64,000 bases of DNA from Minisyncoccota bacterium (GCA_041665625.1 JBAYIK010000001.1:68587-132586); one strand, 5' to 3'. Shown: positions 3,229 to 41,304, numbered from the stretch's first letter. A program made the numbers and translations. Notes: generated from the letters alone by a model not told the origin.

Positions 3229-3262
3229 CCCCGGCTTCCTTTCGGTCGCCGGGAGGTGCTCT
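3229..3262 (+). terminator. rho-independent-like hairpin after uvrA
   Basis: cccggc-ttcctttcggtc-gccggg stem-loop immediately after the stop codon, preceded by an A-run. Confidence 0.5.
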
Positions 3263-3674
3263 CTTCACCCAACAGTTCACCGTCTCTGTTGATGGCTAGC
3301 TCGACCTCGCCGAGCAAAAAACGTCATCAGTACTCCCTTCGACTTCCTCCGACCCTTATCCGGCTCGTCGTCATTACATGACGGCTTCGCGCCTGGCTAT
3401 CCAGATGCCGGTCGGCCTCGTCTAGAACAAACGGGGCACTGTTGGCTACTTTTGAGCTTATCGCTCGGCCACAGTTACGCCCATTGGTCGGATAATTGCC
3501 TTTGCCTGGACCAGAAGAAATCCCGTCTTCTCTGTCCGCTTCGTCGGCCATTCTAAGAAGGGCCTCGCGATCAAAAAGCATAATACCTCTCCTCGACACT
3601 TCGAAATTTCGGTTATAACCTGCAAAACGAAACTCCCATTGAGTTTCTCTGATTAGTATTGTAGAATAGACAAA

Positions 3675-4988
3675 ATGATTAGTCAAGACCTAAAAAAATA
3701 TAAGTTGCCCGATAAGCCTGGAGTTTATAGGTTTTTTAAAGGGAAGAACCTCCTCTATATCGGTAAAGCGACTTCGCTTAAAGATCGGGTGCGGAGTTAT
3801 TTTGCTGGTGACCTTGGCGAAACTAGGGGCCCCAAGATCACCCAGATGCTTGCTCTGGCAAATAAAGTTGAATGGCAAGAAACTGACTCGGTTCTCGAAG
3901 CACTGCTTTTAGAAACTGAATTAATTAAGAAATATCAACCTAAATATAACTCGAGAGAAAAAGATGATAAGAGTTATTGGTATGTGGTTATTACTGACGA
4001 AGATTTCCCTCGCATTCTTCCTGTCCGCGGGCGAGAGTTGCAGAATCCAAAATCTCCTTATTTTTCGATATCCAATCTCGAAAAATTTGGGCCTTTTCCT
4101 TATGCAACAGAAATTAAAGAAGCGCTGAAGATTATAAGAAAGATTTTTCCTTATCGTGATAGGTGTGAGCCTTGCAAGGCGAAGAGAGATGGGACCTCAA
4201 GTGAACCCGAGGCCGTTTCTCGCGTAGCTTGCAAAGCTTGCTTTAATAGACAAATTAGACTTTGTCCAGGTGTTTGTACTGGTGAAATTTCTAAAACTGA
4301 ATATCGAAAAATTGTTCGCAATATAAAATTACTTTTCTCCGGCAAGAAGCAAGAAATTATAAAAAATCTTGAGCGGGAAATGAAAGTTCTGGCCAAGAAA
4401 CAAGAATTTGAAAAAGCAGGGAAGATTAGGGATCAGATTTTTGCTCTTAATCATATTCGAGATGTGTCGCTACTGAAAAATAGTGGACGAGCGGGAAGAG
4501 GAGAGTCCTTAAGTGAGCCCAAGGACTTTCCTCGAGGAGCTCGCCCCTCTTCAATTAGAATCGAAGCCTATGACATTGCCCACTTAAGTGGTAAGAAGAC
4601 AGTTGGAGCGATGACAGTCTGGCAAGATGGAGAGTTGGATAAAAGTGAATACAAGAAATTTGAATTAAGAGGCCCTAAGGCCAATCAGGCCGATGATCCA
4701 GCGAACCTTCGGGAGATTCTTGAGCGCCGTTTTAATCATCCGGAGTGGGGAATGCCAGATATTGTGGTGGTGGATGGCAATCAGGTGCAAGTTAATGTGG
4801 CAAAGGAAGTTTTTCTCTCCTCAGTCGCGATTGTTGGCGTTACTAAAGATGCCAAGCATAAAGCGAGCAAATTAATCGGCGATCAACACATCATCCATGA
4901 CTATCATCGAGCGATTGTTGAAGTCAACGCTGAAGCTCATCGTTTCGCGATAAGTTATCACCGCAAAAAGATGCGTCAAATAATCTAG
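3675..4988 (+). CDS. uvrC: excinuclease ABC subunit C (UvrC), short form lacking C-terminal (HhH)2
   Basis: GIY-YIG motif (GVYRFF...LLYIGKATSLKDRVRSYF), Cys-rich region, UvrB-interacting helix (QEFEKAGKIRDQIFAL), RNase H-like endonuclease domain (IEAYDIAH). Only 437 aa, ends before any HhH. Confidence 0.85.
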   Translation: MISQDLKKYKLPDKPGVYRFFKGKNLLYIGKATSLKDRVRSYFAGDLGETRGPKITQMLALANKVEWQETDSVLEALLLETELIKKYQPKYNSREKDDKSYWYVVITDEDFPRILPVRGRELQNPKSPYFSISNLEKFGPFPYATEIKEALKIIRKIFPYRDRCEPCKAKRDGTSSEPEAVSRVACKACFNRQIRLCPGVCTGEISKTEYRKIVRNIKLLFSGKKQEIIKNLEREMKVLAKKQEFEKAGKIRDQIFALNHIRDVSLLKNSGRAGRGESLSEPKDFPRGARPSSIRIEAYDIAHLSGKKTVGAMTVWQDGELDKSEYKKFELRGPKANQADDPANLREILERRFNHPEWGMPDIVVVDGNQVQVNVAKEVFLSSVAIVGVTKDAKHKASKLIGDQHIIHDYHRAIVEVNAEAHRFAISYHRKKMRQII

Positions 4989-5006
4989 TTATGGTAAAAT
5001 AAAGGC

Positions 5007-5987
5007 ATGCTACCAGCGCTGTCTTTTGCATTTATTACCGAACCCGGTTTTATGATCGTCTTTGTCATATTTTTTGTCTTGGCTTATTGCCTTGGTTACT
5101 ATTGGCAGAGTCGTCATAGTCGAGTCAGTCTTCTTATTGAAGAAGCCAATTTCAAAACTGACCAGATTGCCAAATTAGAAAAAGTTAACAAAACTTTAGA
5201 AGATACAAATCGACAACTTTACGCTAAGGAGCTTGAGCTAACGATGGCCAACACTCATTTGGCTTCGCTCGAACAGGCTAAATCAAAATTCATCTCAGTT
5301 ACCACTCATCAACTTCGCACACCGTTGGCGGCCGTTAAATGGACGCTTGATATGGCGGCTAAGGGTGACCTTGGCGTGGTAGATGAAGAACAAAAGAAAT
5401 TCTTAAACAAGGGTCTCGAGAGTATCAACCGGGTTATCTCAATTGTTAATGACTTACTGAAGGTTGACTCTATTAATACAGACAAAGATGATTACCAATT
5501 CAAAGCGCTGGACATTCTTAAGTTGCTCGAGGATGTCTTCTTCGAATTTAATAATCAAGCAATAAGTAAGAAAATAAGCCTGATCATCGAGAAGCCTGAT
5601 AAGGGTGTACCACTGGTCGAGGTTGATGATGATAAAATTCGGATGGTCTTAGAGAATCTCATTGATAACGCTATCAAATATACGCCAGATGGGGGCAAGG
5701 TCACTGTTCGTTTATCTGACTCTAAGCTCAATAGCGCTGTCCCGGCACTAGAAATTTCAGTTATTGATTCCGGTATTGGTATTTCACCCGAGGATTCTGG
5801 TAAAATCTTTCACAAGTTCTTCCGGGCCGCCAACGCGATCAAGAAGGAGCCTGATGGTTCAGGTCTGGGCCTCTTTATCGCCCATGACATTATCGAGAAG
5901 CATGGGGGAGTTGTTTGGTTTGAGAGCCATCCTGGCGACGGTACCACCTTTTTCTTCACTTTACCTTTACATCAGAAGAAAGTATAA
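5007..5987 (+). CDS. sensor histidine kinase (1 TM, coiled coil, HisKA + HATPase_c)
   Basis: H-box TTHQLRTPLAAV; N/G boxes DNAIKYTP...GSGLGL; N-terminal hydrophobic helix. Confidence 0.8.
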   Translation: MLPALSFAFITEPGFMIVFVIFFVLAYCLGYYWQSRHSRVSLLIEEANFKTDQIAKLEKVNKTLEDTNRQLYAKELELTMANTHLASLEQAKSKFISVTTHQLRTPLAAVKWTLDMAAKGDLGVVDEEQKKFLNKGLESINRVISIVNDLLKVDSINTDKDDYQFKALDILKLLEDVFFEFNNQAISKKISLIIEKPDKGVPLVEVDDDKIRMVLENLIDNAIKYTPDGGKVTVRLSDSKLNSAVPALEISVIDSGIGISPEDSGKIFHKFFRAANAIKKEPDGSGLGLFIAHDIIEKHGGVVWFESHPGDGTTFFFTLPLHQKKV

Positions 5988-6041
5988 TATTCTTATATAG
6001 CTTAAACTAAGCAATTAATTAGCAATTTTAATAACAATAAT

Positions 6042-6422
6042 ATGGCAGACGGTAAAAAGAAGATTTACATAGTTGAGGACGACGAATTTTTACGTTCACT
6101 CAACGCCAAGAAGCTTGAGGGCGAGGGTTATGAGGTCGTGGTGGCCGTCGATGGGCCAAGCGCTATTACTGGCATTCCCGAAGCGGCTCCTGACCTTGTT
6201 TTCTTAGACTTGCTCTTGCCTGGGGGCAAAGATGGCTTCGATGTTCTTACTTCAATTAAGGCTGATGAGAAAACCAAGAATATTCCGGTCATTGTCTTTT
6301 CTAACCTTGGTCAGACTGAGGATATTGAGAAAGCTCGCAAATTGGGGGCAATCGACTTCTTAGTTAAAGCCAATTTCACTCTAGACGACGTGGTTCTCAA
6401 AATTAAGGATATTCTAAAATAA
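6042..6422 (+). CDS. single-domain response regulator (REC only)
   Basis: CheY-like receiver: DD near N-terminus, phospho-Asp context LVFLDLLLPGGKDGFDVL, conserved K in FLVKA; 126 aa, no output domain. Confidence 0.85.
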   Translation: MADGKKKIYIVEDDEFLRSLNAKKLEGEGYEVVVAVDGPSAITGIPEAAPDLVFLDLLLPGGKDGFDVLTSIKADEKTKNIPVIVFSNLGQTEDIEKARKLGAIDFLVKANFTLDDVVLKIKDILK

Positions 6423-6425
6423 CCA

Positions 6426-7400
6426 ATGGCACTTATTCGAGTTGGTATCTTGCGCGGTGGGATAGGGCACGAATATGAAGTGTCACTTAAAACTGGTGCT
6501 AGTGTAATTAAAAATCTATCGGGGGATAAATATCAACCGGTGGATATTCTCATTACTCGTGATGGCACCTGGCACTTAGGAGGCAAGGAGGTTACTCCTG
6601 AGCACGCTATCCGTAGTGTCGATGTCGTCTTTAATGCTCTCCACGGTGAATTTGGTGAAGATGGCCAAGTTCAGCAGATATTGGAGGCGGTTCAATCACC
6701 TTATACTGGCTCAGGAGCAGTTGCTTCGGCCTTAGGGATGGATAAGCATAAGGCCAAGGAAATTTTCAAACAAGCGGGCTTCAAAGTGCCCAATGGCGTG
6801 GTCATCAAACGTGATTATCAGACGGATGCCGAAGCGGTGGCCTACGACGCCTTCCAAAAGATTGCTCCACCTTGGATTGTAAAGCCGGCGGGGAGTGGCT
6901 CATCTGTTGGTCTATATCTGGCTAAGACTTTTCCTGAATTAGTGCAAGCTCTAGAAGCCTGTTTTGGTATTAGTGACCGGGTAATTATCGAAGAGTATAT
7001 CAGGGGCAAAGAGGCCACCTGTGGCGTTGTGGAGGCCTTCCGTGATCAGGATCACTACGCTTTGATGCCAATTGAGATTGTTCACCCGGCTGGGGCTGGT
7101 GTTTGGAATTATGAGGCCAAGTATAGTGGTGAGACCGCTGAGCTTTGCCCTGGACGTTTTACCAAAGAAGAGAAAGCCGAGTTGGAGAGACTAGCGACCG
7201 AGATTCATAAGGTGCTTGGTCTTCGTCATTATTCTCGCTCAGATTTTATTATCTCACCTCGTGGTATTTATATTCTGGAGGTTAATACCCTGCCAGGGAT
7301 GACAGAGGAGTCATTGATCCCTAAGGCTCTTAAGTCCGCTGGTATTTCCTATGAGCACTTCTTGGACCATATCATTAGCTTAGCTATGAACAAGCATTAG
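6426..7400 (+). CDS. ddl: D-alanine--D-alanine ligase
   Basis: ATP-grasp Ddl motifs: LRGGIGHEYEVSL, ALHGEFGEDGQVQQILE, SPYTGSGAVASALGMDK; 4 nt after the response regulator stop. Confidence 0.9.
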   Translation: MALIRVGILRGGIGHEYEVSLKTGASVIKNLSGDKYQPVDILITRDGTWHLGGKEVTPEHAIRSVDVVFNALHGEFGEDGQVQQILEAVQSPYTGSGAVASALGMDKHKAKEIFKQAGFKVPNGVVIKRDYQTDAEAVAYDAFQKIAPPWIVKPAGSGSSVGLYLAKTFPELVQALEACFGISDRVIIEEYIRGKEATCGVVEAFRDQDHYALMPIEIVHPAGAGVWNYEAKYSGETAELCPGRFTKEEKAELERLATEIHKVLGLRHYSRSDFIISPRGIYILEVNTLPGMTEESLIPKALKSAGISYEHFLDHIISLAMNKH

Positions 7401-7408
7401 AAATTTTT

Positions 7409-8771
7409 ATGAAGAGAATTATTTTTACACTCATTTTCTTTGCCCTAATGTTTCCATTTGGACTGACCCACGTATTAGCCGAGGAACTCTTCCCTGTTAT
7501 TAGTTTCCATAGCGACGAAACTTTTGAAGCTGATAGTGAGGGAGGGGCAAGCATTTTTTACCCGAACCCAATGGTCGTTGATGATCTTGACGAAAGTTTT
7601 GGGGCCAATTGTTTGCCCGCTTCAGGAGATTTTTTCCCTTTGGGGACAACAACGGTTTATTGTCTTGCCACAGACAGTGAGGGGAATTCAGCGTCTTCAA
7701 CATCATTTAATATCATCGTTGTTGACACAAAAGCCCCAACCCTTATTTTGAATGGGGATAGCAGTATTGATATCACTGGAGGTGATACTTATACTGAGCT
7801 GGGGGCGACCGCCGCCGACATTGTCGATGGAGAGATTACGGCGAGAATTTCCATTACTGGCTCAGTTGATACGCTAAAGGCTGGTTCTTATACTCTTATT
7901 TATGATGTCTCTGACTTATCAGGAAACTCTTCTCAGACGACGAGAATCGTTAATGTCTCTGATGCCTTTGCCCCCGTTATTGAGCTAATTGGTGATAATC
8001 CTCAAATTATTACGCGGAAACAAGCTTATGTTGAACTAGGCGCCACGGCGACTGATGATGTTGATGGGGAGATCTCTATGGATGAAATTGAAAAAAAACG
8101 GTTCAGTTGACACTGCTGTTGCTGGGTCTTATTTTATGGATTATTCAGTTAAAGATTCTAACGGTAATGAGGGTTCTAAACGGCGCGAAATTATTGTTCA
8201 AGATCTTAATCCTGTTATCACCCTGCTTGGTAATTCGGTCATTGACCTGAGAGTTGGAGAAAATTACGTTGATCCTGGTACAACAGCTATTGATGATGTC
8301 GACGGAGATGTCACTGAGGGGGTCATTGTTGGGGGTTTGGTTGACACCGTTCTCGCGGGAACCTACGTTCTAACTTATAGCGTCACAGATGAAGGAGGGA
8401 ATATTTCTTTGCCCGTAACAAGAACTGTAAATGTAACACCTATCCCTGTTATTCCAGAAGTTTCTCCTCCAAGATCTGGTGGCGGAGGGGGAGTTTCTAC
8501 TGTGTTTTTGAAACCTGTGGCCACAACGACGGAGGGCCGAGTCTTGGGGGCTTCAACCTACCGTTTCCTTAAGGTTCTTAAGCTTGGGGCAAGAAGTGTG
8601 GGGGTTAAAGAATTGCAAGATAGATTAAGGACTGAGGGATTTTATAAAGGAGCAACAACTGGTTACTTTGGTAATCTAACTAGAGTGGCTCTAAAAGCTT
8701 ACCAAAAGAAAAATGGATTGGTGCCTTATGGAATATTAAACAAGGCCACAATGTTTGTCTTGAATAAATAA
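7409..8771 (+). CDS. cell-surface protein with signal peptide, HYR/Ig-like repeats and C-terminal peptidoglycan-binding domain; interrupted by a frameshift in an A8 tract (ORF-track pieces 7409..8110 and 8055..8771)
   Basis: Signal peptide MKRIIFTLIFFALMFPFGLTHVLA. Repeats with ATA.D.VDGEI...GSVDT..AGSY..Y.V.D..GN pattern run across the frame break. C-terminal PG_binding_1-like segment (LKLGARSVGVKELQDRLRTEGFYKGATTGYFGNLTRVALKAYQKKNGL). One fewer A at 8091-8098 restores a single ORF. Confidence 0.7.
8091..8098 (+). repeat. A8 homopolymer at frameshift site (candidate slipped-strand phase-variation tract)
   Basis: gaaAAAAAAAAcgg: frame 1 terminates at 8110, frame 2 continues the repeat unit (..KKNGSVDTAVAGSY..). 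Confidence 0.6.
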
Positions 8772-8793
8772 AAAATAGTTTGAACTAAAAAGC

Positions 8794-8840
8794 AATGACC
8801 GGTTTCGCTCTGCGAAACCGGTCATTAGTTTTTGTGTTTT
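8794..8840. terminator. bidirectional hairpin terminator between convergent genes
   Basis: aatgaccggtttcg-ctct-cgaaaccggtcatt perfect 14-bp stem followed by tttttgtgtttt; A-run on the other side. Confidence 0.7.
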
Positions 8841-9334
8841 CTCCACCTCCTTGTTAATCTCAATCTCCAAGCCAAGAGCTTACGAGTTAAATCTGGTAAT
8901 TGTTTGCGCATCACATCGATGTGCCAACAATTGAAACCGCCAGTGGTGATCAGCAGGAACACGTTAATGATGACGAGCAACCAGAAGGTTCTCCCTTGCA
9001 AGTTGGTTAGCCACCCCAAGCAGAAGACGTAGGACAAACTCTTGCTGATAGAGAAAGAGATTGTATCGAGCGTAAAGCGGTGTAGGCTATTCTCACGGTT
9101 TATGAGACCGGTGCGATAGAGCCCTTCTCGTCCTAACCAAAACGGCAGAGCTAGGATACCATCAACAACTAAGCTAACGATACGGAAGCCCCACATGTTT
9201 AACAACGATAACCCGCAATATAGCTCGAGAGGCCAGGCGACCACCGCCCGGGCAACTCCGACGATGTTCATCGAGAGCACCGCCGCTAGCCAACCTTCGA
9301 TCATGTTCTTGAACCAGGTGTTAAGTTTTAACAC
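8825..9334 (-). CDS. hypothetical integral membrane protein (4-5 TM)
   Basis: 169-aa ORF with several hydrophobic helices; no confident family assignment. Confidence 0.5.
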   Translation of the reverse strand: MLKLNTWFKNMIEGWLAAVLSMNIVGVARAVVAWPLELYCGLSLLNMWGFRIVSLVVDGILALPFWLGREGLYRTGLINRENSLHRFTLDTISFSISKSLSYVFCLGWLTNLQGRTFWLLVIINVFLLITTGGFNCWHIDVMRKQLPDLTRKLLAWRLRLTRRWRKHKN

Positions 9335-9390
9335 TTAAATCACCTCCTTTCTAGGGGCTATCTTAGCAGGGTTATACCCAGAAAGCGAGT

Positions 9391-9461
9391 ACTGCTCCAT
9401 CACTTCGTTCAGGGTTATGACCATAAAAAGGTCACTGCTCCATCACTTCGTTCAGGGTTAT
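9391..9461. repeat. 28-bp perfect direct repeat, two copies, period 43 bp, in divergent intergenic region
   Basis: actgctccatcacttcgttcagggttat at 9391-9418 and 9434-9461. Confidence 0.85.
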
Positions 9462-9666
9462 CCACAGATTGCCAGACTGTGCGATATCCAATCTCGCACA
9501 ATAGAGGCCATATTTTTCAATTGTTTCTATCGGACAAACGTTTTTGTCTCTTAGAAATCGAGAAAAACCTTATTTTTGAGCCCCAAAACCGTCTTGACTT
9601 TAATTCTCAGTGCGTTATTTTCAGTGGACAGGTCTATATTATTAAAAAATTATTAGTTTTATTATT

Positions 9667-10662
9667 TTGATATTTATGAGTAAAAAATTATTAACCACCT
9701 TAAGCCTTTTTGCCTGTTCGTTTGCCTTTGTCCTTTCTGCTAGCGCTGTTGTTGGTCCTGAACCAACGGGGACGATTCTTATCAATAATGGGGCCACTTA
9801 TGTTAATAGTCGCAATGTGACGTTAAATCTTTCTACGACAGATGGATCTATTGTAAGGATGGAATTTTCCAATGGCGGATCTTATTCTACCCCAGAACCT
9901 TATGCCACAGCTACTTCCTGGACTTTATCAGCTGGGGCTGATGGCCTTAGAAATGTAAGAGTAAAATTTATTAATACATCTGGTGCTACTACAAGTACAG
10001 GGATTCTTGCTACCACGACTCTTGATACTACCGCTCCTGTTATCACCGCCCCGGTTGACCAAACCTTTGAGGCTACCGGAGCGACAACTACCCCAACTTT
10101 GACCTCGGCTACTTCGACTGATGTCACAAGTTCTACTACGGTAGATTATTCACCTAAGGAATTTTCTGTTGGTACGACAACTGTTACCTGGACTGCCACT
10201 GATGCCGCTGGTAATTTTGCTACCACAAGTTCCTTGGTAATTATCACCGAGAAAGTTGTGACGGTTCCTCCTGTTGTTACCCCAAGTCATCGTGGCGGGT
10301 CCTCTATTATGAAAGTTAATTTTGCTTTGGCCACAAGTACCGGTCAAGTTCTTGGTACTTCGACTGAGAAAGCAGTGAAAGAGAAGGTAATAAAGCGCAA
10401 GTTAACTCCAGAGGAGAAGAAGGCTCGCGTCTTCAAGAAAAGATTGAATCACATTAAGATTGCTATCTACGAGTTGAAGCACCCAGAGTCTAAGGTTCCT
10501 CCAATTGAGATTGTCTTTGGCACTAGTACTCAATCAAGCTCTGTCGGCACTGTCCCGCTTGTCCCTACGAATCTAACTGTTTCTGATTCAGGCGAAATTG
10601 TTGGCACCGGAACCAAGGCGACAACAACTCCAAAGAAGAAACCATTCTGGAAGTTGTGGTAG
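9667..10662 (+). CDS. secreted/surface protein with HYR-like domain and Thr-rich segments
   Basis: Signal peptide (LLTTLSLFACSFAFVLSASA), HYR-like TWTATDAAGN motif, Thr/Ser-rich low-complexity segments, basic C-terminus. Confidence 0.65.
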   Translation: MIFMSKKLLTTLSLFACSFAFVLSASAVVGPEPTGTILINNGATYVNSRNVTLNLSTTDGSIVRMEFSNGGSYSTPEPYATATSWTLSAGADGLRNVRVKFINTSGATTSTGILATTTLDTTAPVITAPVDQTFEATGATTTPTLTSATSTDVTSSTTVDYSPKEFSVGTTTVTWTATDAAGNFATTSSLVIITEKVVTVPPVVTPSHRGGSSIMKVNFALATSTGQVLGTSTEKAVKEKVIKRKLTPEEKKARVFKKRLNHIKIAIYELKHPESKVPPIEIVFGTSTQSSSVGTVPLVPTNLTVSDSGEIVGTGTKATTTPKKKPFWKLW

Positions 10663-10691
10663 GAGAGTAGCGAGATAAATTATAGAAACTA

Positions 10692-10735
10692 AAAGTGCCC
10701 CACCTAGCTTAGCTAGGCGGGGCACTTTGTATTAA
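10692..10735 (+). terminator. hairpin terminator after surface-protein gene
   Basis: gtgcccc-acctagcttagctaggc-ggggcac stem with palindromic loop, then tttgtatt. Confidence 0.6.
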
Positions 10736-10922
10736 AAAAGAAAGCGAGGAGTCCGCCATATGGGGAGTCCTCGCGAGGGGGAAAAGGGGGCTGGCACCGC
10801 GCCTTCAGTTGGGGAACTGTTGGTAAGTGGGGGGGGTAGACAGTCAGTGCACACGGTGCCAGCGGACCTTAGCCTACCATTAAGTTATTTATTTGTAAAG
10901 AGAGGGGGTGGAGCTTATTTTG

Positions 10923-10995
10923 TGGACCATAGCGGGATCGAACCGCTTACCTCTTCCATGCCATGGAAGCGCTCTACCAATTGAGCTAATGGCCC
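10923..10995 (-). tRNA. tRNA-Ala (anticodon GGC)
   Basis: Reverse complement folds as a cloverleaf: acceptor gggccat/atggtcc with G3:U70, D-arm gctc-aattggta-gagc, anticodon stem cttcc/ggaag with loop atGGCat, T-arm agcgg-ttcgatc-ccgct, discriminator A; CCA not encoded. Confidence 0.85.
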
Positions 10996-11061
10996 CTTCG
11001 TTTGATAATATAGCAAATCTTCGTTAAAATGTGAAGTATATTAATAATTTACTAAAAGACT

Positions 11062-11469
11062 ATGTTAAAAGAATTTAAACAATTTCTCCTTCGTGGGAGT
11101 GTCGTCGATCTGGCCGTTGGTGTTGTCATTGGCGCTTCGTTTGGAACCATTGTCACTGCTCTGGTCTCCGACTTACTCACTCCACTCATCGCCGCGATTG
11201 TTCAGGCCCCAGATTTTAGTGGCCTATTCTTCACCTTGAATGGTAGCCAATTTATGTACGGTCACTTCATCAATGCCTTGATCTCCTTCCTCCTCGTGGC
11301 TAGCTCAGTCTTCTTCTTTGTCGTTAAACCAATGAATATTCTCATTGCTCGCTCGCACGAAGGCCGACCAACCGATTTTATCACCAAGAAATGTCCTGAT
11401 TGTCGCAGTGAGATTCCTAAGGATGCCAAGCGTTGCAAATTCTGTAGTCAGCCTCAAGTAATAGAATAA
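11062..11469 (+). CDS. mscL: large-conductance mechanosensitive channel MscL with C-terminal zinc-ribbon extension
   Basis: MLKEFKQFLLRGSVVDLAVGVVIGASFGTIVTALVSDLLTPLI is a classic MscL N-terminus/TM1; C-terminal CPDC...CKFC four-Cys ribbon. Confidence 0.85.
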   Translation: MLKEFKQFLLRGSVVDLAVGVVIGASFGTIVTALVSDLLTPLIAAIVQAPDFSGLFFTLNGSQFMYGHFINALISFLLVASSVFFFVVKPMNILIARSHEGRPTDFITKKCPDCRSEIPKDAKRCKFCSQPQVIE

Positions 11470-11494
11470 AAATTTCTAATAATTTTATAAAAGC

Positions 11495-11532
11495 AAAAGC
11501 GCGTGACCTCGGGGGAGGGCACGCGCTTGTTC
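11495..11532. terminator. bidirectional hairpin between convergent mscL and GC-rich gene
   Basis: gcgcgtg-acctcgggggaggg-cacgcgc stem-loop flanked by A/T runs. Confidence 0.5.
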
Positions 11533-11549
11533 GTCTGAGTTGAGTCTCT

Positions 11550-12314
11550 TCAGTCCTCGGTTTTCTGGGGGTAGGGCGTGAAGGCGTTCTTGCCCTTCTT
11601 GAAGCCGTTGGCCTTGCCCCAGAATTGGGCGCCGTAGACCCAGACCTGACCGTGGCAAAGGATGGTGACCCCGGAGTCCCCTTCACAAACCTCGTCGATG
11701 TCGAAGTCGTCACCGGGTGTGAAGGGGACCGAGAGGATGAAGTCTGTGGGAGTGCCTACTATCACGTAGGCCCAGACCTTCTTTTCGCAGGGCTCTAGCC
11801 ACTTCACCAAGGCGACAGCGGTGCCGGTGTTCTCGTCGGCATGGATCCATTCCCGGCTGATGAAGTCTACACTCGGGAAGGGGGCGTTCATAACCCCTTC
11901 GAGCGCCCAGAGTGTCTCCGTGATGGGGACATTCTTGACGACGAAGTCGTGGGTCCCGACGAAGCCGGTAATCCCTTCGTAGACCTCGGTCAGGGCTTCG
12001 TGGGTGTCGAAGATGAGGTGGCTGCCGAGTATCAATCGCGTGGTCGTCTCGTTCACAAAGACGGCGAGCTCGTAGCGGTCGGGGGCGCAGACTTCAGGGT
12101 TATCGGAGATCTTATCCCCTTTGATAACCCTGATCATCGAGATGAGGCCGACGCCATTCGTCGACCGCAATCCCTTGATGCCGCGCAGATCTCCGCGGAA
12201 GTCGCTCGGGGTCCAGATGGTCCGGCCTTTCTTGGCCTTCGCTAGGGCCACAGGGCTATTGCCGAAGACCGAAGGTTCGACAATGGCGTATCCAAGACGT
12301 TCTTGTTCGGGCAT
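11550..12314 (-). CDS. hypothetical protein (GC-rich islet; paralogous core shared with 12541..12936)
   Basis: ORF-track 11550..12419; start moved to Met of MPEQERLGY (ATG 12314) preceded by AAGGAGA RBS; ~57% GC; APDRYELAVFV segment matches FPRETYFEVAVFV of the neighbouring gene. Confidence 0.6.
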   Translation of the reverse strand: MPEQERLGYAIVEPSVFGNSPVALAKAKKGRTIWTPSDFRGDLRGIKGLRSTNGVGLISMIRVIKGDKISDNPEVCAPDRYELAVFVNETTTRLILGSHLIFDTHEALTEVYEGITGFVGTHDFVVKNVPITETLWALEGVMNAPFPSVDFISREWIHADENTGTAVALVKWLEPCEKKVWAYVIVGTPTDFILSVPFTPGDDFDIDEVCEGDSGVTILCHGQVWVYGAQFWGKANGFKKGKNAFTPYPQKTED

Positions 12315-12365
12315 AGTTACGGTTTCTCCTTTTTTTCCGCTGTTTTTGCCTGAGACAGAGTCTTT

Positions 12366-12420
12366 GAAACTCAACAATTCGAATAACAAAGAACTCTGAT
12401 TACCATTTCTTTTTAGCACG
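12366..12420 (-). promoter_or_regulatory. conserved promoter/leader module, copy A (upstream of 11550..12314)
   Basis: gaaactcaacaattcgaataacaaagaactctgattaccatttctttttagcac, ~75% identical to the copy at 12976-13035. Confidence 0.5.
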
Positions 12421-12439
12421 AAAATTGAGGCAAGTCAAA

Positions 12440-12469
12440 GGGCGCCGTCTCCCGGAGGAAAAGGCGCCC
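12440..12469 (-). terminator. hairpin downstream of 12541..12936
   Basis: gggcgcc-N16-ggcgccc perfect 7-bp GC stem. Confidence 0.35.
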
Positions 12470-12540
12470 AAACTAAAGTCTTGCCCTGCGTAGCCTTGGC
12501 GAAGCAGGGGAGTTCCGTCGGCTGGTCGTCAGCGTGACGA

Positions 12541-12936
12541 TCAGGCCGGGGTAGTCTCGTTCGCCGGCTCGGTGACCTTCACATCGCAGTTCTCGATGTA
12601 TATGGCCATCCTTCTGGCGATGAGATTCTCGGCCTCGAGGTTGGGGACGACGAAGGATGTCCCCTCGACCAGACACCACTCGGTTCCCGTAAGCACGAAG
12701 ACGGCGACCTCGAAGTAGGTCTCCCGGGGGAACTCCGGCTTGGGGGCCCCGGCGACCATGTTCGCGACGAACTGGAACGAGAGTCGGTCCTTGGTGCGAA
12801 GATGCTTCCGCCCGATGACCTTGGTCATGTTCTCGGTTGTCCAGGTTGTCGTCGTGGCACCAACTACCTTCGTGACCCCATCGAGGATGTCCTCAAGAGG
12901 CAGATCCGTTCGGATCACTCTAAGTTCTCTTGCCAT
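12541..12936 (-). CDS. hypothetical protein (GC-rich islet, ~131 aa)
   Basis: ORF-track 12541..12999; start moved to MARELRVIR (ATG 12936) after GAAGGAAG RBS; GC-rich; paralogous core with the adjacent gene. Confidence 0.55.
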   Translation of the reverse strand: MARELRVIRTDLPLEDILDGVTKVVGATTTTWTTENMTKVIGRKHLRTKDRLSFQFVANMVAGAPKPEFPRETYFEVAVFVLTGTEWCLVEGTSFVVPNLEAENLIARRMAIYIENCDVKVTEPANETTPA

Positions 12937-12975
12937 TTGTGTTCTTCTTCCTTCTCTGGTTGAGAGGAGTCCTCC

Positions 12976-13035
12976 GAAACTCAATATATAAAGTAACAAA
13001 GAACTCCCAATACCTTTTAATTATAGCATACAAGA
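12976..13035 (-). promoter_or_regulatory. conserved promoter/leader module, copy B (upstream of 12541..12936) with TATAAT -10 on minus strand
   Basis: gaaactcaatatataaagtaacaaagaactcccaataccttttaattatagcat; minus-strand reading contains tgcTATAATtaaaag. Confidence 0.5.
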
Positions 13036-13099
13036 CCTATTACGTCAAATTTAGACTAAGATATCGAAAACCTAATGTTCGACATCTTGTTTTCCCTTT

Positions 13100-13999
13100 G
13101 TGAAGTTTTTTGAGTTTGTTATAATAAGCGGAATGTTAGGGAACAAGAAGCTCCGCTTAGCTCTGCTCATTGCCTTGGTCATTGAACTCGGCTTTTTAGT
13201 TTTTCCCATTATCTCTACTCTTAATATTTCGGACAAAGGTTTTACTGCCGCAGTTTTGCCAGCCGTCTTAGATCAGTTGACCAACGAGAATCGCCAGGCC
13301 GAGAAGCTCTCAGCCCTAACTGTTAATCCGCTTCTAAACAAGGTGGCCGAGCTCAAGGCCCAAGACATGGCTGAGAAAGGTTATTTCTCTCATGTGAGCC
13401 CCGAGGGCAAGGAGCCTTGGTACTGGTTTCAAAAAGTGGGTTATCAATACGAGAATGCGGGCGAGAACTTGGCTATCGACTTCACCGAATCGGCCGATGT
13501 CACCAAGGCCTGGATGAATTCTCCAACTCACCGCGCCAATATTGTTAAAGGTGCTTATACTGAGGTGGGTACTGGTATTGCCAACGGCAGTTTCGAAGGT
13601 AAGCCAACAACTTTTGTCGCTCAAGTCTTTGGTCGTCCGGCGGACGCCGCTCCTGATAATATTTCTCGTCTCTACGCCTCTAATATTTCTAAGAATGCTA
13701 AAGGTAATAAAGTTCTTGGCGCCTCAACTGACCAGGTAGCTAGCGCTGATCTTAAGTCTAAAGAATCCCTACCGATTGTTATCTTGATATTCCTGGGTAT
13801 TACAGTCTTTGCTATTGTTCTCTTCAAGCTAATTATTTTTCTTAATAAAAAATTCTTCAAGGCCGTGACCGGTATTCTCATTTTCCTTGTTATCGCTCTA
13901 GGAGTATACTTAATCAATAATTATATCGTCGATAAAAAAATGTCCGAGCGGACATCCTTTGCCAGCTTCGAAGGTGAGAAATTCAATTCACCTCAGTAA
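13100..13999 (+). CDS. membrane-anchored CAP/SCP (PR-1-like, YkwD-type) domain protein
   Basis: N- and C-terminal hydrophobic helices; CAP motifs GENLAIDFTESADVTKAWMNSPTHRANIVKGAYTEVGTG. Confidence 0.7.
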   Translation: MKFFEFVIISGMLGNKKLRLALLIALVIELGFLVFPIISTLNISDKGFTAAVLPAVLDQLTNENRQAEKLSALTVNPLLNKVAELKAQDMAEKGYFSHVSPEGKEPWYWFQKVGYQYENAGENLAIDFTESADVTKAWMNSPTHRANIVKGAYTEVGTGIANGSFEGKPTTFVAQVFGRPADAAPDNISRLYASNISKNAKGNKVLGASTDQVASADLKSKESLPIVILIFLGITVFAIVLFKLIIFLNKKFFKAVTGILIFLVIALGVYLINNYIVDKKMSERTSFASFEGEKFNSPQ

Positions 14000-14055
14000 A
14001 ATTTTCCCTTTTTCTCCATTTTATGCTTTAATAGTGCTGTTCTTGTCATCAACAA

Positions 14056-14131
14056 GGGCCCTTAGCTCATCTGGTAGAGCGCCTGCTTTGCAAGCAGGAG
14101 GTGAGCGGTTCGAGCCCGCTAGGGTCCACCA
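14056..14131 (+). tRNA. tRNA-Ala (anticodon TGC), CCA encoded
   Basis: gggccct...agggtcc acceptor with G3:U70, D-arm gctc-atctggta-gagc, anticodon loop ttTGCaa, T-arm agcgg-ttcgagc-ccgct, ACCA end. Confidence 0.9.
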
Positions 14132-14141
14132 AATATCTCTG

Positions 14142-14170
14142 TTGACATATCTCTAAAAAAAGAGTATAAT
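14142..14170 (+). promoter_or_regulatory. consensus sigma70-like promoter (TTGACA-17-TATAAT) driving GC-rich islet 2
   Basis: TTGACA 14142-14147, 17-nt spacer, TATAAT 14165-14170. Confidence 0.6.
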
Positions 14171-14262
14171 ACAGCTAGAGTTTAAGTTCACGCTATGGCA
14201 TCTGTTTGCTAGAGCGTTTTTATAATTTTCGTCATAACACACAAATAAGAAGGAGGTGTGAA

Positions 14263-15375
14263 GTGCTATCTCAGGACATCAACCGAATGGAAAAGGCCCT
14301 GCAGGCACACGAGGACTCTCTCTGGTACTTGCGCCAAATTTGGCAGACCCAGGGGAAGGACTCGAATTGCTTGCCCGAACCCGGAGCCTTGCGCGAAGCT
14401 CTGACGAATGGCGATTGGACAGCCGTGAATGTTATCCTCGCCATGCTGTGGACGTACTTCAAGGAGGAACTGGGGAAGGACACCGGTCTGGCCAGTATCC
14501 TTTTCTACACGGCGATGGATATTGCCGACTGGGTAAGAAACTCTCGGCGAGTTTACTCGCTCTCTCCCAGCTTGGCCGAGATGCTCCTGGCTACGGACCT
14601 TCCGAAGTTTAAGGCTCGCGACGTCAAGTTCGTCTCATTGGTTTTTGCCATTAAGTTGGAGGAGCCGGTGACAACTCCGAGCGGTAAGGTCCATGACTAT
14701 ATCGTCTTTCGCTACCTTCCGGCCGGCGAAGACGGTCTGACCGAGATTGTCATGCGGTCTTACTCGGGTGAGATGGATACTTATCAGAGGGTTTCGGCGG
14801 ACAAGAAGAAGCGGATAGAACGGTTGGCGAGGAATAACCCCGCGGGTTTTGTTCAACATTCGTCGCCTTGCATCGGCGAGTTGAACAAGGCTACCTACAC
14901 GGGCCTTGCCTTCACCTGCCCGGTCGACATCCCGCTTAACGAGATGATGACGGCCCAGGTCTTCGGCGAGGATACTCCGGTTGAAGACCGGGAAGTCCTC
15001 TTCCGCCTCTGTTTCGGCTTGAATCTCTATCTTCAGTCTTCCCGCAAGGATGATTACGAGGCAAAGAGAACGAACCGCGCCTGGCCGAACGAGCGGGGCA
15101 AGCCGGTTACGGACCAGACCGACATCTTCGACCTGAACGTCTCGACCGTCTTCCATCGCAAGTCTCACTCTCTCGAGGACGAGGAAACTTGTCGCTCTGG
15201 GGGTTACGAGATGCGCCCACACCTTCGCAACGGACACTGGCGTCGCCCTTGGGGTTATGGCAAGGACCCCGACGCTCCGGCAACGGTATGGATCAAGCCC
15301 CTGTGGGTCAGGAAAGATCTGATCGCGAAGGGTGTCCAGCCCATCGGAGCGCTACGCAAAGTGGCCAAGCGGTAG
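14263..15375 (+). CDS. hypothetical protein (GC-rich islet 2, ~370 aa)
   Basis: AGGAGG 14251-14256 then GTG 14263 in frame with ORF-track 14206..15375 (alternative ATG 14290); ~56% GC; no recognisable domain. Confidence 0.6.
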   Translation: MLSQDINRMEKALQAHEDSLWYLRQIWQTQGKDSNCLPEPGALREALTNGDWTAVNVILAMLWTYFKEELGKDTGLASILFYTAMDIADWVRNSRRVYSLSPSLAEMLLATDLPKFKARDVKFVSLVFAIKLEEPVTTPSGKVHDYIVFRYLPAGEDGLTEIVMRSYSGEMDTYQRVSADKKKRIERLARNNPAGFVQHSSPCIGELNKATYTGLAFTCPVDIPLNEMMTAQVFGEDTPVEDREVLFRLCFGLNLYLQSSRKDDYEAKRTNRAWPNERGKPVTDQTDIFDLNVSTVFHRKSHSLEDEETCRSGGYEMRPHLRNGHWRRPWGYGKDPDAPATVWIKPLWVRKDLIAKGVQPIGALRKVAKR

Positions 15376-15398
15376 TGACGAAAACCTGTGAGTATCAA

Positions 15399-15436
15399 GA
15401 GCCCGGCGCGAAAGTGTCCGGGCTCTACTGTTTTTA
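15399..15436 (+). terminator. rho-independent terminator
   Basis: gagcccgg-cgcgaaagtgt-ccgggctc stem then ctgttttt. Confidence 0.65.
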
Positions 15437-15566
15437 TAAAATATTAATTATCTAGACACATTAAAGAAAATGTGTTAGTAATAGTTTCAGATTAAGTTCT
15501 TCCGTGGTGAACATAAGTAGCCATAGGAATTGTAAATAATTGCGGACAAAAGGAGATCCAAGCACT

Positions 15567-16286
15567 ATGCCTGATGGTTCAAGTCGTGATTGGGCTGAAG
15601 TCGTCAAACGCAACCCCAAGGGGGACTTCGAGTTCCAGGGAAATGGGAACACTGTCCTCCGCGGGCCGGTCAAGAGCATAACCCTCAGCGACGAAGGACT
15701 CGTCTCCATCGACCTCTGGTGGGCCGCCGAGATGCCCGTCATGGGTGAAGAAGGCTTCGGAATCTGGCATGCCTCGAACAAGCGGCACTTCGGGTTCCCC
15801 AACTTTGCCCTTCCCTATGTCATCGAGGACACCCCGGAGAAGGGCGAGCGCATTCGCTTCGGCATCTCCCTCATCTACCTCGAGCGCCTCGAGGGAGAGA
15901 ACACCTTGGACGTCAGGAAGGTCAATGGTCTCACCTGCGTGACACACGTTGTCGCTGCTCCCGATGGCCCTTGCCCCGCCGGCGGTGTCGCTCTCTCGGT
16001 GGTCTACCGGGATGTGAGCGGTCAGTCATGGGCCGATCCGACCCAAACAATTTCCCCCGAGGAGATTGCCGCAGCCGTTCAGCGCTGCGAGTTCCTGGCG
16101 TTGAAGACGCCGCTGTACCTGACCGAGACGCAGCACATCTTATTCCTGCCGAACGGCAAGTTCGTCTTGGCCGATCTCCGCGACGGGAAGCCCATCGAGG
16201 AGATTGAAGAGGAGGTCGAGTTCGCCGAAGCCCCCGCTCCGGCTCCGGCCGAAGAACCTCCGGCCCCCGAGCCCCCGCAAGAATAA
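15567..16286 (+). CDS. hypothetical protein with Pro/Ala/Glu-rich C-terminus (GC-rich islet 2)
   Basis: AAAGGAG 15550-15556 then ATG 15567 (ORF-track 15540); ~58% GC; C-terminus EEEVEFAEAPAPAPAEEPPAPEPPQE. Confidence 0.55.
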   Translation: MPDGSSRDWAEVVKRNPKGDFEFQGNGNTVLRGPVKSITLSDEGLVSIDLWWAAEMPVMGEEGFGIWHASNKRHFGFPNFALPYVIEDTPEKGERIRFGISLIYLERLEGENTLDVRKVNGLTCVTHVVAAPDGPCPAGGVALSVVYRDVSGQSWADPTQTISPEEIAAAVQRCEFLALKTPLYLTETQHILFLPNGKFVLADLRDGKPIEEIEEEVEFAEAPAPAPAEEPPAPEPPQE

Positions 16287-16294
16287 CGCGCCCA

Positions 16295-16370
16295 GCCCAC
16301 CCCACGAGGATGGCAGAGAAGTCTGCCCTCTCCGTGTGTGGTGGGCTTTTTCTGTGTTTTTTATTTTGAG
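16295..16370 (+). terminator. hairpin + T-rich tract terminator closing GC-rich islet 2
   Basis: gcccaccccac...gtgtggtgggc 11-bp stem (1 mismatch) followed by tttttctgtgttttttatttt. Confidence 0.55.
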
Positions 16371-16452
16371 AACCTAATAAAATTATGGTAATATTAGGAG
16401 GTCTATTCACGACTAAGTCGCGTTCTATTTTATAAATTAATATCATAATTTT

Positions 16453-17421
16453 ATGAAAGAAATTGTTATCTCTAAAAGAAGGCTTTTTATCGTTTCGATA
16501 ATTGTCTTAGTTTTAATTTTCTTGTGCCTTATTGTTGTATCGTCACTTTCTGTTGCTCGCGATAAGATGATGGGCGTAAGCTCTGCCTCAGCGCCTTCTA
16601 TGGGCTTCGGTGAGAGTCAATCTTCGATCAAAATGATTGAGCCTTATTATAATAGAGAGAACCCAACAATTTCTGATACTCGAGAATTTCTAAAGACTAG
16701 CTACTCTTCTACTCTCCGAACCAGGAATGTTTCGAGTATGATTAAAGAAGTTCGCAATGCCATTAAGGGTGCCGATGGGCGCATTGATAATTTCTATAGC
16801 TCCGAGAAAAGTGGGAGCATTAGTTTTGTTGTTGCCAAGAGCAAGTTCGAAGACCTGCGCAGCCAAATTGAAGGTATGACTTATGCCAAACTTTATACTG
16901 AGAGTGTCTCGTCTCAGAACCTATTGAGTCAAAAGCAAAATATTGAAGAACAAACCGTGCGTGTGGTGAGTTCGCTTGAGAGTCTGCAGAAGCAGAAGGA
17001 TGACCTCACGGCTAGCCATACTCAGAAAGCTAACGCTATAAATATTGAGCTTGCTCGCCTTCGTAGCGAATTGGCTAATACCCAAAGTGCCACCGAGAAA
17101 AGTGACCTGCTTAATCAACAAAATATCCAAAACCAGAAATTGAGCACCGAGAATAGCAATTACGCGGCTCAAAGTAAGAACTTAGATGCCCGAATCGCCA
17201 ACGAGAACAGCAATCTCTCAAATGTGAATAAACAAGATGATCAGTTTGCCGATAACATCGAGACCGTTAATGGTTATGTCGCTATCAATTGGGTTAGCTG
17301 GTGGCAATTGGTCAAGATTTATTCACCCGTTTCTCCGGTCATTATCATTATTGTTCTAGTAATAATTGCCTGGATTTTACTCCGTCGCAAAGGTTACTTG
17401 CCTAAGATCATCATCCAGTAA
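16453..17421 (+). CDS. membrane protein with N- and C-terminal TM helices and Gln/Asn-rich coiled coil (DUF4349-like architecture)
   Basis: N-terminal TM (LFIVSIIVLVLIFLCLIVV), long coiled-coil segment, C-terminal TM (PVIIIIVLVIIAWILL). Confidence 0.55.
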   Translation: MKEIVISKRRLFIVSIIVLVLIFLCLIVVSSLSVARDKMMGVSSASAPSMGFGESQSSIKMIEPYYNRENPTISDTREFLKTSYSSTLRTRNVSSMIKEVRNAIKGADGRIDNFYSSEKSGSISFVVAKSKFEDLRSQIEGMTYAKLYTESVSSQNLLSQKQNIEEQTVRVVSSLESLQKQKDDLTASHTQKANAINIELARLRSELANTQSATEKSDLLNQQNIQNQKLSTENSNYAAQSKNLDARIANENSNLSNVNKQDDQFADNIETVNGYVAINWVSWWQLVKIYSPVSPVIIIIVLVIIAWILLRRKGYLPKIIIQ

Positions 17422-17423
17422 TT

Positions 17424-25196: not shown

Positions 25197-25724
25197 ATGA
25201 AGACTTTTAGCGTCCTCATTTTGGGGACAGAATGTCGAGATCTGGCATCAGGCCTGAAAGGGACCGTGACGCACTGGACCTGCGACATGGGAGGGAGAGT
25301 TGAATACTTCTTCCAGCCCCTCGGGTTGGATGAGGACGGACAACCGGTCAAGAAGCTTTATGTCTGCGACCAACGACTGGAGGTCAAGCCGAAGGACTTC
25401 GAAGCGGTAGAGGTGCCCTTCGAGATCCTTGGGACGATAGTCACCGACAAGGCCAGCGGGTTCACCGGTATGGCGATAAACTTCGTTCGCCATCTCAATG
25501 GGTGTTTCCATGTGGTGATCCAGCCACAGGGGATGCTCAAGGGGAAGAACGTCCCGGTTGAAGCGGCGGATTTTGACCTCAGAGGCTGCAAGGGGAAGAT
25601 GATAACGCAGATGTCGGAGGAAGAGAAGAAGGAAAGCACACAGAAGAATCCTTCCCCCACCGGCGATCGTTTCACTCGGCCCCAGCCCCCCTCGTCCCCG
25701 AAGCCCCCTTCTTGCCGGCGATAG
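25197..25724 (+). CDS. hypothetical protein (GC-rich islet 3)
   Basis: 175-aa ORF, ~57% GC, Pro/Ser-rich basic C-terminus; no motif. Confidence 0.5.
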   Translation: MKTFSVLILGTECRDLASGLKGTVTHWTCDMGGRVEYFFQPLGLDEDGQPVKKLYVCDQRLEVKPKDFEAVEVPFEILGTIVTDKASGFTGMAINFVRHLNGCFHVVIQPQGMLKGKNVPVEAADFDLRGCKGKMITQMSEEEKKESTQKNPSPTGDRFTRPQPPSSPKPPSCRR

Positions 25725-25735
25725 CCTGGCAAATC

Positions 25736-25778
25736 CCGCCCGAAGAGCCGCTCGCTCTTCGGGCGGTTTCTATTTTTG
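25736..25778 (+). terminator. strong rho-independent terminator
   Basis: ccgcccgaagagc-cgctc-gctcttcgggcgg perfect 13-bp stem followed by tttctattttt. Confidence 0.75.
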
Positions 25779-26111
25779 GATTAAATCTCTTAAATTTGTT
25801 ATAGTTTCCCCATGTCATTAAGTATCGGAATCCTGCGAGCGTCGCACGTCTGTTTGAGATCAAAGAAAGTACCTTCCTTCTTCCATTCGAGTTCGTAATA
25901 AAATTACCTAAGCCTAAATGGCAAACAATTAAGGGGTTTAAACGCCCTAAAAAAGAGGGGATTAAATAAACTTATAAAACATTGACATTTTTTGTAAATG
26001 TTATATAACATAAGAGGATTAAAACTTTGTCAAAGACTAGGAATAATAAGGAATTGAGGCTCAAAACAACAACCCAACTCTTAATTGAGTAGGGAGTGAG
26101 GAGACCGCTTC

Positions 26112-27329: not shown

Positions 27330-27335
27330 GTCGCC

Positions 27336-27587
27336 ATGAAGAAGCTCTATTTTTGGGGAATTGAATTCCCCCTACAGACCCTGCTCACAGCCATCTTGTC
27401 ACTCGTCTTCGGGCTGGGCTTCTCGATCTGGATTGCTGTGATGCATCTGGTCGAAATCCGCTCGTTTTGGACCGGTTGGCGTGATGAGTTGACCTTCTGG
27501 ACAGGAGGAGTCGTGACGTTCTTTCTTGGAGCAATTCTTTGCCCTGTCTATGGCCTTCAAGAGGTCTGGGCTGAGGCTCACACCTAG
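27336..27587 (+). CDS. small membrane protein (2 TM)
   Basis: 83-aa ORF 6 nt after the beta-barrel gene, two hydrophobic helices. Confidence 0.4.
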   Translation: MKKLYFWGIEFPLQTLLTAILSLVFGLGFSIWIAVMHLVEIRSFWTGWRDELTFWTGGVVTFFLGAILCPVYGLQEVWAEAHT

Positions 27588-27813
27588 TCCACACGCAATG
27601 ACCGCACAATCGGCCACTTTCCACAGGGAGAGGGGCCGATTTCTAATTGACCTAAAATTTTAAGCATCAATCTTCTAACCGTTGACAGGTAAGAGATTAT
27701 GAGCTATTCTATTGACAGATTCGTAAGAATGATGGATTATCTGCCATCTTCAAGCGATTGATCTTATTATATGGTTACGAGGTTAAAGAATACCCCTAAA
27801 AAGGAGAAGTCCC

Positions 27814-41192: not shown

Positions 41193-41304
41193 TTATCTTC
41201 TAATAATAGACTTTTTGTGGCCGAAATTAAAGGGCTAAAAGTCTTCTTTATTTAAACTTAAATCTGTGGTAGTATTTAAAGACAATTTAATATTAGAAGT
41301 AGCC

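Follow-up and report, generated by a model that had tools for sequence, protein, structure and literature searches.

The morons of lambdoid phages are autonomous units of promoter, open reading frame (ORF) and terminator that stand out by their deviant base composition. The AcrVA2 family, to which the plasmid fertility inhibitor FinQ belongs, is widespread on mobile elements (Marino et al., bioRxiv 10.1101/2022.11.29.518452). AcrVA2 itself is a Cas12a inhibitor whose residues H286, R288 and H291 are needed for mRNA down-regulation, their mutation abolishing the loss of Cas12a mRNA, and family members, whose N-terminal target-recognition regions are divergent, are usually found where Cas12a is absent (Marino et al., bioRxiv 10.1101/2022.11.29.518452). 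The family acts by a translation-dependent lowering of one particular mRNA, that of Cas12a for AcrVA2 and that of F transfer genes for FinQ. Here we analyse a stretch of 64,000 nucleotides (nt) from a Minisyncoccota bacterium (GCA_041665625.1, JBAYIK010000001.1:68587-132586), referred to below as the window, which is part of a ~293-kb contig of a Candidatus Paceibacterota (candidate phyla radiation, CPR) metagenome-assembled genome (MAG) and contains two GC-rich islets with four genes, A to D, on either side of a gene for a CAP-domain protein. We read this locus as an accessory hotspot that varies between strains, lies on both sides of the CAP gene and is filled with horizontally acquired, moron-like single-gene cassettes, of which A would encode an AcrVA2-like protein, and assign this reading a probability of roughly 0.7. 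The observations that carry it are the foreign composition, the cassette anatomy, the family membership of A, the strain-level replacement and the selection on B. The features concerned are as follows, both tRNA genes being placed by ARAGORN and Rfam alike.

10922-10995, minus strand: tRNA-Ala(GGC)
11550-12314, minus strand: gene C, ORFan, 254 amino acids (aa)
12541-12936, minus strand: gene D, ORFan, 131 aa
13100-13999, plus strand: host-like CAP-domain membrane protein, the conserved anchor between two variable blocks
14056-14131, plus strand: tRNA-Ala(TGC), CCA encoded, its 3′ end being the left boundary of a variable slot
14263-15375, plus strand: gene A, 370 aa, predicted AcrVA2/FinQ-family protein
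15567-16286, plus strand: gene B, ORFan, 239 aa

C and D make up islet 1, A and B islet 2, whose two proteins are deposited as WCV68_00420 and WCV68_00425. An initial annotation of this DNA had already placed the two tRNA genes, on opposite strands, and both ORFs of islet 2, and all four were found where it had put them.

Cassette turnover between closely related strains

The sister genome L007 is 84% identical to the window at the nucleotide level, with synonymous divergence (dS) of 0.35-1.15 in the flanking genes. Its homology to the window runs through tRNA-Ala(TGC) to position 14129, the discriminator base, and returns at 15448 where the promoter region of B starts; in the place of A it has an unrelated, AT-rich gene of 299 aa. 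Another slot lies downstream of B, where a 322-aa gene sits between a conserved promoter (16366-16394) and a downstream 73-aa gene in the window and is absent in L007. The sister genome in turn has a 142-aa CheY-like receiver gene (L007 2098-2526, minus strand) that the window lacks, which is rich in GC at third codon positions (GC3 0.76), has a TTGACA-17-TATACT promoter and is placed between the terminator of B and the promoter of the 73-aa gene (window 16356/16397).

15448: right boundary of slot 1, at the promoter-like site of B, from the comparison with L007
16397-17422, plus strand: third variable slot, with the host-like 322-aa membrane/coiled-coil gene (16453-17421)

More distant Paceibacterota have the CAP gene right after the gene at 8055-8771, and the 73-aa gene comes within 1-4 kb after the CAP gene. 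Both intervening blocks, 8772-13099 and 14000-17423, are missing from these relatives and are therefore lineage-specific. The initial annotation had the two tRNA genes bracket islet 1, which proves misleading, as the 3-kb interval between them mixes the host-like MscL and CAP-domain proteins with C and D, and tRNA-Ala(GGC) itself lies inside a lineage-specific block.

If the hotspot was loaded by site-specific recombination, islet 2 would be an integrase-mediated genomic island, or the remnant of one, inserted in the 3′ end of tRNA-Ala(TGC). The foreign DNA indeed begins 10 nt past this tRNA and the divergence from L007 starts exactly after the discriminator base. In L007, moreover, the replacing gene is bracketed by a tRNA-Ala(TGC) that ends without an encoded CCA (L007 1-60) and, past the 299-aa gene, by 10 nt that exactly repeat the tRNA 3′ end of the window (GGGTCCACCA; L007 1050-1059); ~0.02 such copies would be expected by chance at the locus, and tRNA and copy together resemble an attL/attR signature at the same site. 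The window itself tells against such an island. No partial tRNA repeat with up to 3 mismatches over 25 nt was found in it, and among the 9-mers of the tRNA 3′ half none recurs between 14132 and 17500, save for one chance 9-mer inside B, so that the tRNA 3′ end is not directly repeated at the distal junction. Among the annotated ORFs nearby, Pfam scans detected no tyrosine or serine integrase next to the tRNA and no integrase, recombinase or transposase within ~10 kb. The units are single genes of ~1.3 kb, and homologous recombination via the conserved flanks would give the identical pattern. We consider an integrase-made island unlikely, if well worth weighing. The hint of the initial annotation at a classic integration at the tRNA 3′ end is thus upheld in part only, by the breakpoint and the 10-nt copy in L007, and not by the window, where the partial tRNA-Ala repeats that it proposed to look for downstream do not occur.

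The tRNA-Ala pair forms an 80-nt inverted repeat, 83% complementary and 3,060 nt apart (10916-10995 and 14056-14135), and recombination between the two genes could in principle invert the MscL-C-D-CAP segment. Downstream of tRNA-Ala(GGC) lies a GC-rich non-coding stretch of ~190 nt (10729-10921, minus strand) with a 13-bp long-range stem and a terminal terminator (minimum free energy -54.9 kcal/mol, z = -4.8) and with no Rfam match, which may be a small structured RNA co-transcribed with this tRNA.

Gene A as an AcrVA2/FinQ-family protein

Judging by its sequence and modelled fold, A is a member of the AcrVA2/FinQ family. A precomputed match to PF26125 (‘AcrVA2-like’) is on record for a 100%-identical copy of the protein (P0001) and for the homologues P0002-4 and P0014. 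The AlphaFold2 model of A (predicted local distance difference test, pLDDT, 71; predicted template modelling score, pTM, 0.74) has the same fold as AcrVA2 (7CI1/7CI2), as 7ci2_A was the sole Foldseek match at E <= 0.001 (E = 4.4e-4). Near the C-terminus phmmer pairs RPHLRNGHW of A with RPHIRRGHW of AcrVA2, and H320-x-R322-x-x-H325 of A thereby falls on residues 287, 289 and 292 of the AcrVA2 chain. Assuming a one-residue offset in numbering, these are to be read as H286, R288 and H291, in which case H320, R322 and H325 of A would be the counterparts of the His/Arg residues described for AcrVA2. Across 31 family members there is no variation at H320 and G324 and next to none at R322, W326 and R328.

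A word-indexed search of 5.8 billion proteins returned three non-self homologues of A, and a profile search of 1.84 billion representatives returned 611 relatives. The nearest relatives of A sit on low-GC metagenomic contigs. The initial annotation had named the GC-rich host of an episymbiont as one speculative source of the islets, and no finding favours such a donor, nor does any rule it out. On L001 and L002 the AcrVA2-like gene is likewise solo, with its own TTGAC-type promoter and terminator. Homologues are found in unrelated settings, by a ribosomal-protein operon, by a LexA-like/RmuC region and by a type I restriction-modification system, and they range from no GC3 excess over the genes around them to a strong one, as repeated transfers of different ages would produce. 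Carriage on mobile elements, typical of the family though not strict, was not seen for A within ~10 kb; its patchy and context-free distribution still indicates mobility.

Membership in this family, the conserved functional motif and the inhibition of Cas12a by AcrVA2 itself (Marino et al., bioRxiv 10.1101/2022.11.29.518452) would also suit a true anti-CRISPR, one that silences the Cas12a or another Cas12 of this bacterium and is the relic of a decayed prophage or plasmid. Against this, the window holds no cas gene and no CRISPR array in its 64 kb, a neighbouring 1297-aa protein has no Pfam match at E <= 0.01, Cas12a models included, and there are no prophage or plasmid genes nearby. Family members, besides, are typically found without Cas12a (Marino et al., bioRxiv 10.1101/2022.11.29.518452). 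We judge it improbable that A serves as an anti-CRISPR here.

The deposited start of A (362 aa) is probably 8 codons late (14263-14286), as the GTG at 14263 follows AGGAGG and homologues conserve the N-terminal residues that are thereby gained (DINRMEKAL). A relation of A to B as paralogues (26% identity over 143 aa) was judged not meaningful, having been scored against a six-sequence database. Two contigs with AcrVA2-like genes have features of their own. On L001 a diversity-generating retroelement (bAvd and reverse transcriptase, 7402-9915) lies inside a ribosomal-protein operon, with the solo AcrVA2-like gene just upstream of rpsS. On L030 a run of SAICAR synthase, OMP decarboxylase and methyltransferase genes (1851-7890) has a GC3 of 0.57-0.65 against 0.30-0.33 in the flanking aminoacyl-tRNA synthetase, a contrast from which mosaic composition may be common in such genomes.

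Genes B, C and D

From database comparisons these three genes appear to be lineage-restricted ORFans. B has one close homologue, 85% identical and located in the sister genome, and one partial homologue; relative to the sister orthologue its ratio of non-synonymous to synonymous divergence (dN/dS) is 0.14 at a dS of 0.56, which is within the range of the flanking core genes, and by this measure B is maintained by purifying selection. The sole match of C among 5.8 billion proteins is C itself, and for D an exact-sequence look-up and a scan of viral contigs returned the same strain alone. Local scans of A to D with Pfam, PHROGs, PADLOC and NCBIfam gave nothing significant, so that B, C and D are without a family match there, and searches of PDB sequences with B, C and D gave no useful match. 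C has a weak trypsin-like motif, C-x-GDSG-x4-C-x-G, near its C-terminus (Pfam E = 0.14; PDB E ~1), which we treat as a lead only; its single-sequence AlphaFold2 model has a pLDDT of 32.

Cassette anatomy

Each of the four genes is predicted to be monocistronic, with its own promoter, a leader of 80-95 nt, a ribosome-binding site and an intrinsic terminator, that is, a promoter and a terminator of its own around a single ORF of deviant composition.

14142-14170, plus strand: promoter of A, TTGACA-17-TATAAT, a perfect sigma-70 consensus 10 nt past tRNA-Ala(TGC)
14171-14262, plus strand: 5′ leader of A, with an AGGAGG ribosome-binding site before the GTG start
15398-15437, plus strand: intrinsic terminator of A, fold z = -4.1, followed by a T-run
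15448-15566, plus strand: leader and promoter-like site of B, TAGACA-17/18-TAGTAAT, conserved in L007
16294-16368, plus strand: long terminator hairpin of B, fold z = -5.6, followed by a T-run
12315-12438, minus strand: promoter of C, TTGACT-17-TAAAAA, and 5′ leader with a 5′ stem-loop
11490-11530, minus strand: intrinsic terminator of C, a GC-rich hairpin followed by a T-run, z = -5.1
12937-13048, minus strand: promoter of D, TTGACG-17-TG-n-TATAAT (11/12, extended TG), and leader stem-loop
12440-12469, minus strand: terminator hairpin of D, z = -4.3

The promoter of A, which the initial annotation had described as ten nt after the tRNA, is the only site in the 64 kb, on either strand, to match the consensus at 12/12 positions. 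Sites with at most one mismatch number 4 against 0.42 expected in 64 kb, and two of them drive A and D; the weakest promoter of the four cassettes is that of B (8.5/12). For genes preceded by an intergenic region, a promoter score of at least 10.5/12 is limited to GC3-rich ones (post-hoc Mann-Whitney p = 0.013). The strong terminators that the same annotation had seen behind both ORFs of islet 2 were not picked up by a simple terminator scanner and were borne out by their folding z-scores and T-runs. Near-consensus promoters, strong ribosome-binding sites, terminators and the dN/dS of B likewise agree with its view of the islet genes as expressed, functional cargo, as far as prediction goes.

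The upstream modules of C and D are homologous, sharing a 53-nt repeat with 75% identity, and their leaders form equivalent 5′ stem-loops with compensatory differences (z = -2.1 and -2.8). The two proteins are 24% identical over 91 aa (E = 0.07), with D weakly matching the N-terminal half of C. With a shared regulatory module and marginal protein similarity, islet 1 therefore looks like a tandem pair on one module. The motif in the C and D leaders is absent from viral contigs and from the comparison loci that were fetched, and the islets and leaders have no match to an Rfam family. A leader motif common to all four cassettes was rejected, as AGTTC ~15 nt after the -10 element is all that they share and is too weak; the module of C and D alone is clearly homologous.

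The non-coding spacers by the islet genes have a GC content of 0.33-0.49 overall. Those flanking A and B and the one upstream of D are host-like (0.33-0.40), so the composition switches at the ORF ends there, and two spacers at 0.45-0.49 consist mostly of terminator hairpins. An AT-rich, host-like regulatory DNA, as initially noted, is thus a fair description of the surroundings of A and B and of the region upstream of D, and not of these two hairpin spacers.

Base composition and soundness of the assembly

In 1-kb windows the GC content is ~0.43 in the background, 0.55-0.57 in islet 1 and 0.52-0.56 in islet 2, in keeping with the GC-rich islets that had been noted next to the tRNA-Ala genes. 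The overall GC contents of the genes are 56.8% for A, as in the ~56-58% initially given for the ORFs of islet 2, 61.5% for B, which is slightly higher than that, and 59% each for C and D. Their GC3 values are 0.72 (A), 0.75 (B), 0.79 (C) and 0.79 (D), compared to a mean of 0.45 across the 56 genes of the window (mean gene GC 0.44) and to a GC3 of ~0.40 and a GC at second positions (GC2) of ~0.34 in typical host-like genes. GC at first positions (GC1, 0.56-0.65) and GC2 (0.42-0.44) are raised in A to D as well, and the amino-acid composition is therefore shifted, not codon choice alone. In relative synonymous codon usage the islet genes correlate with each other (r = 0.5-0.8) and, negatively, with host genes. 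The gradient of GC over the three codon positions in A to D argues for true coding sequence. The GC excess at all codon positions, the anticorrelated codon usage, the small number of homologues and the absence from relatives agree with the earlier suggestion that these ORFs are foreign. The same annotation had allowed that many such regions along the contig would mean no anomaly at all, and this applies in part, as 9 of the 56 genes are GC3-rich, five of them outside A to D.

Could the GC-rich genes instead be native and owe their composition to translational selection or high expression? They stand behind the strongest promoters of the window, and the high GC3 of B has been kept in two lineages despite a dS of 0.56, both as this explanation would have it. 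Against it, GC1 and GC2, and hence the amino acids, are shifted as well, and the genes are absent in relatives, replaced in the sister strain and represented by 0-4 homologues among 5.8 billion proteins; the ribosomal-protein genes on a related contig, moreover, have a low GC3. A native origin is very improbable on these grounds. That the islets are assembly chimeras or MAG contamination, as the abrupt compositional jumps and the MAG source might suggest, is scarcely credible, since an independent Joint Genome Institute (JGI) contig (L032) matches window positions 12235-15328, spanning C, D, CAP, tRNA and A, at 99.6-100% identity, an independent Logan assembly is syntenic with the window from B and its flanks onward, and the jumps fall at ORF boundaries with complete host-like promoters and terminators on the same molecule. 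The assembly of the islet region is not chimeric.

A model for the hotspot and the points against it

In the model that we favour, a hotspot around the conserved CAP gene, bounded on one side by the 3′ end of tRNA-Ala(TGC), turns over between closely related strains and would have been filled with single-gene cassettes acquired horizontally from one or more GC-richer sources. Duplication of one promoter-leader module would underlie the tandem pair of C and D. By analogy with AcrVA2, A would most likely recognise a single target protein, which could belong to a defence system or to a rival mobile element, by binding its nascent N-terminal peptide, and trigger the loss of the mRNA of this target via the conserved C-terminal H-x-R-x-x-H region of A. 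Inferred rather than observed are what A does biochemically and to which target, where the cassettes came from and how they were inserted.

Several results weigh against the acquisition of mobile cassettes with an AcrVA2-like gene among them. Not only recombinase genes but also phage and plasmid genes are lacking within ~10 kb of the islets in the Pfam scans, and viral contigs and phage records contained nothing related to the islet genes. Plasmid records gave one weak Nocardia match alone for A to D, which is uninformative. With no cas gene, CRISPR array or tandem array within 64 kb, a Cas12a-like target of A is not visible. A local Pfam-A scan of A and its homologues returned no match even at E <= 10, the model possibly missing from that copy, sequence-only links between A and AcrVA2 were marginal in PDB searches (E = 0.4-0.5), and a four-sequence profile found none; family membership therefore rests on the precomputed Pfam match, the fold and the motif. 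B has a GC3 of 0.70-0.75 in both strains despite a dS of 0.56 and is thus older than the strain split, so that ‘recent’ is relative in its case or its GC3 is maintained. Finally, simple transfer out of a GC-rich genome does not account for the abrupt drop in GC between the ORFs and their AT-rich promoters and leaders.

A more far-reaching idea is that CPR episymbionts recurrently capture ORFs of a GC-richer partner organism or of its mobile elements and put them behind reusable, host-type promoter-leader modules at tRNA-linked hotspots. It was prompted by the C/D module being far better conserved than the ORFs that it drives (n = 2), by the TTGACA promoters before almost every GC3-rich gene and by the GC3 of B staying high at a dS of 0.56. 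We regard it as speculative and quite improbable; if true, the AcrVA2-like protein would be a domesticated silencer that acts via nascent-peptide recognition on one particular gene, be it of the host bacterium, of a phage or of a rival element.

Further features of the window

The neighbours of the islets encode UvrA, UvrC, a two-component system, Ddl, surface Ig-like proteins and an ATP-binding cassette transporter. The five GC3-rich genes outside A to D are the following.

8825-9334, minus strand: ORFan, single gene
25197-25724: ORFan, 175 aa, third islet
26112-27329: FadL/Toluene_X-like outer-membrane beta-barrel, third islet
27814-28950: CER1-like_C/SDR protein, third islet
39632-40288: HD domain protein, single gene

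Three of them form a third GC-rich islet (25197-28950), in which each gene stands behind a TTGACA promoter and GC3 is 0.60-0.71. The FadL/Toluene_X-like barrel is odd in this setting, as CPR bacteria are presumed to lack an outer membrane. Upstream of the gene at 8825-9334 a 43-nt repeat occurs twice in tandem with 81% identity, along with a partial third copy (9367-9452). A full-length LOOT RNA (Rfam RF03000; 87.6 bits against a gathering threshold of 46.4) lies at 41301-41421 on the plus strand, in a 600-nt intergenic region upstream of the ORF at 41480-41992.

Comparison with known systems

An AcrVA2-like family is already known, and horizontal transfer into a variable region is an ordinary, well-documented event. 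Compared to described members of the AcrVA2/FinQ family (PF26125, 7CI1/7CI2), A is alike in size (370 aa against ~320-390 aa), in the C-terminal R-P-H-x-R-x-G-H-W motif with the residues needed for AcrVA2 activity, in its divergent N-terminal half and in having no evident Cas12a nearby. It differs in its identity to AcrVA2, 8-12% in structural alignments, and in being a solo chromosomal gene of a CPR bacterium with no recognisable phage or plasmid around it. An AcrVA2/FinQ-type regulator as a solo chromosomal gene under a strong predicted promoter in an ultra-small CPR bacterium is what this locus adds to the family, and it makes a compact case for finding AcrVA2-type targets where Cas12a is absent. 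To our knowledge, few genes for anti-defence or for conflict between elements have been described in CPR bacteria.

The resemblance to integron cassettes lies in tandem single-gene units that vary between strains. In contrast to these, each islet unit has its own promoter, and attC-like or integron-like repeats at the cassette ends, an IntI integrase and a shared promoter Pc were not found. With tRNA-linked islands the locus shares the site immediately 3′ of a tRNA, a strain-variable cargo and, in L007, a short repeat of the tRNA 3′ end; unlike them, it has neither an integrase nor att repeats in the window and consists of single genes of 1-1.3 kb instead of at least 10 kb. The comparison with L007 shows that single-gene cassettes are exchanged at the 3′ end of a tRNA over the time in which strains diverge, and the locus should be a useful marker of accessory-gene flux in Paceibacterota. 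Like phage morons, finally, the islet genes have their own sigma-70 promoter and factor-independent terminator and a sharply deviant composition, and their units differ between close relatives, but they stand among chromosomal core genes, and their regulatory DNA is host-like with the ORF alone being GC-rich.

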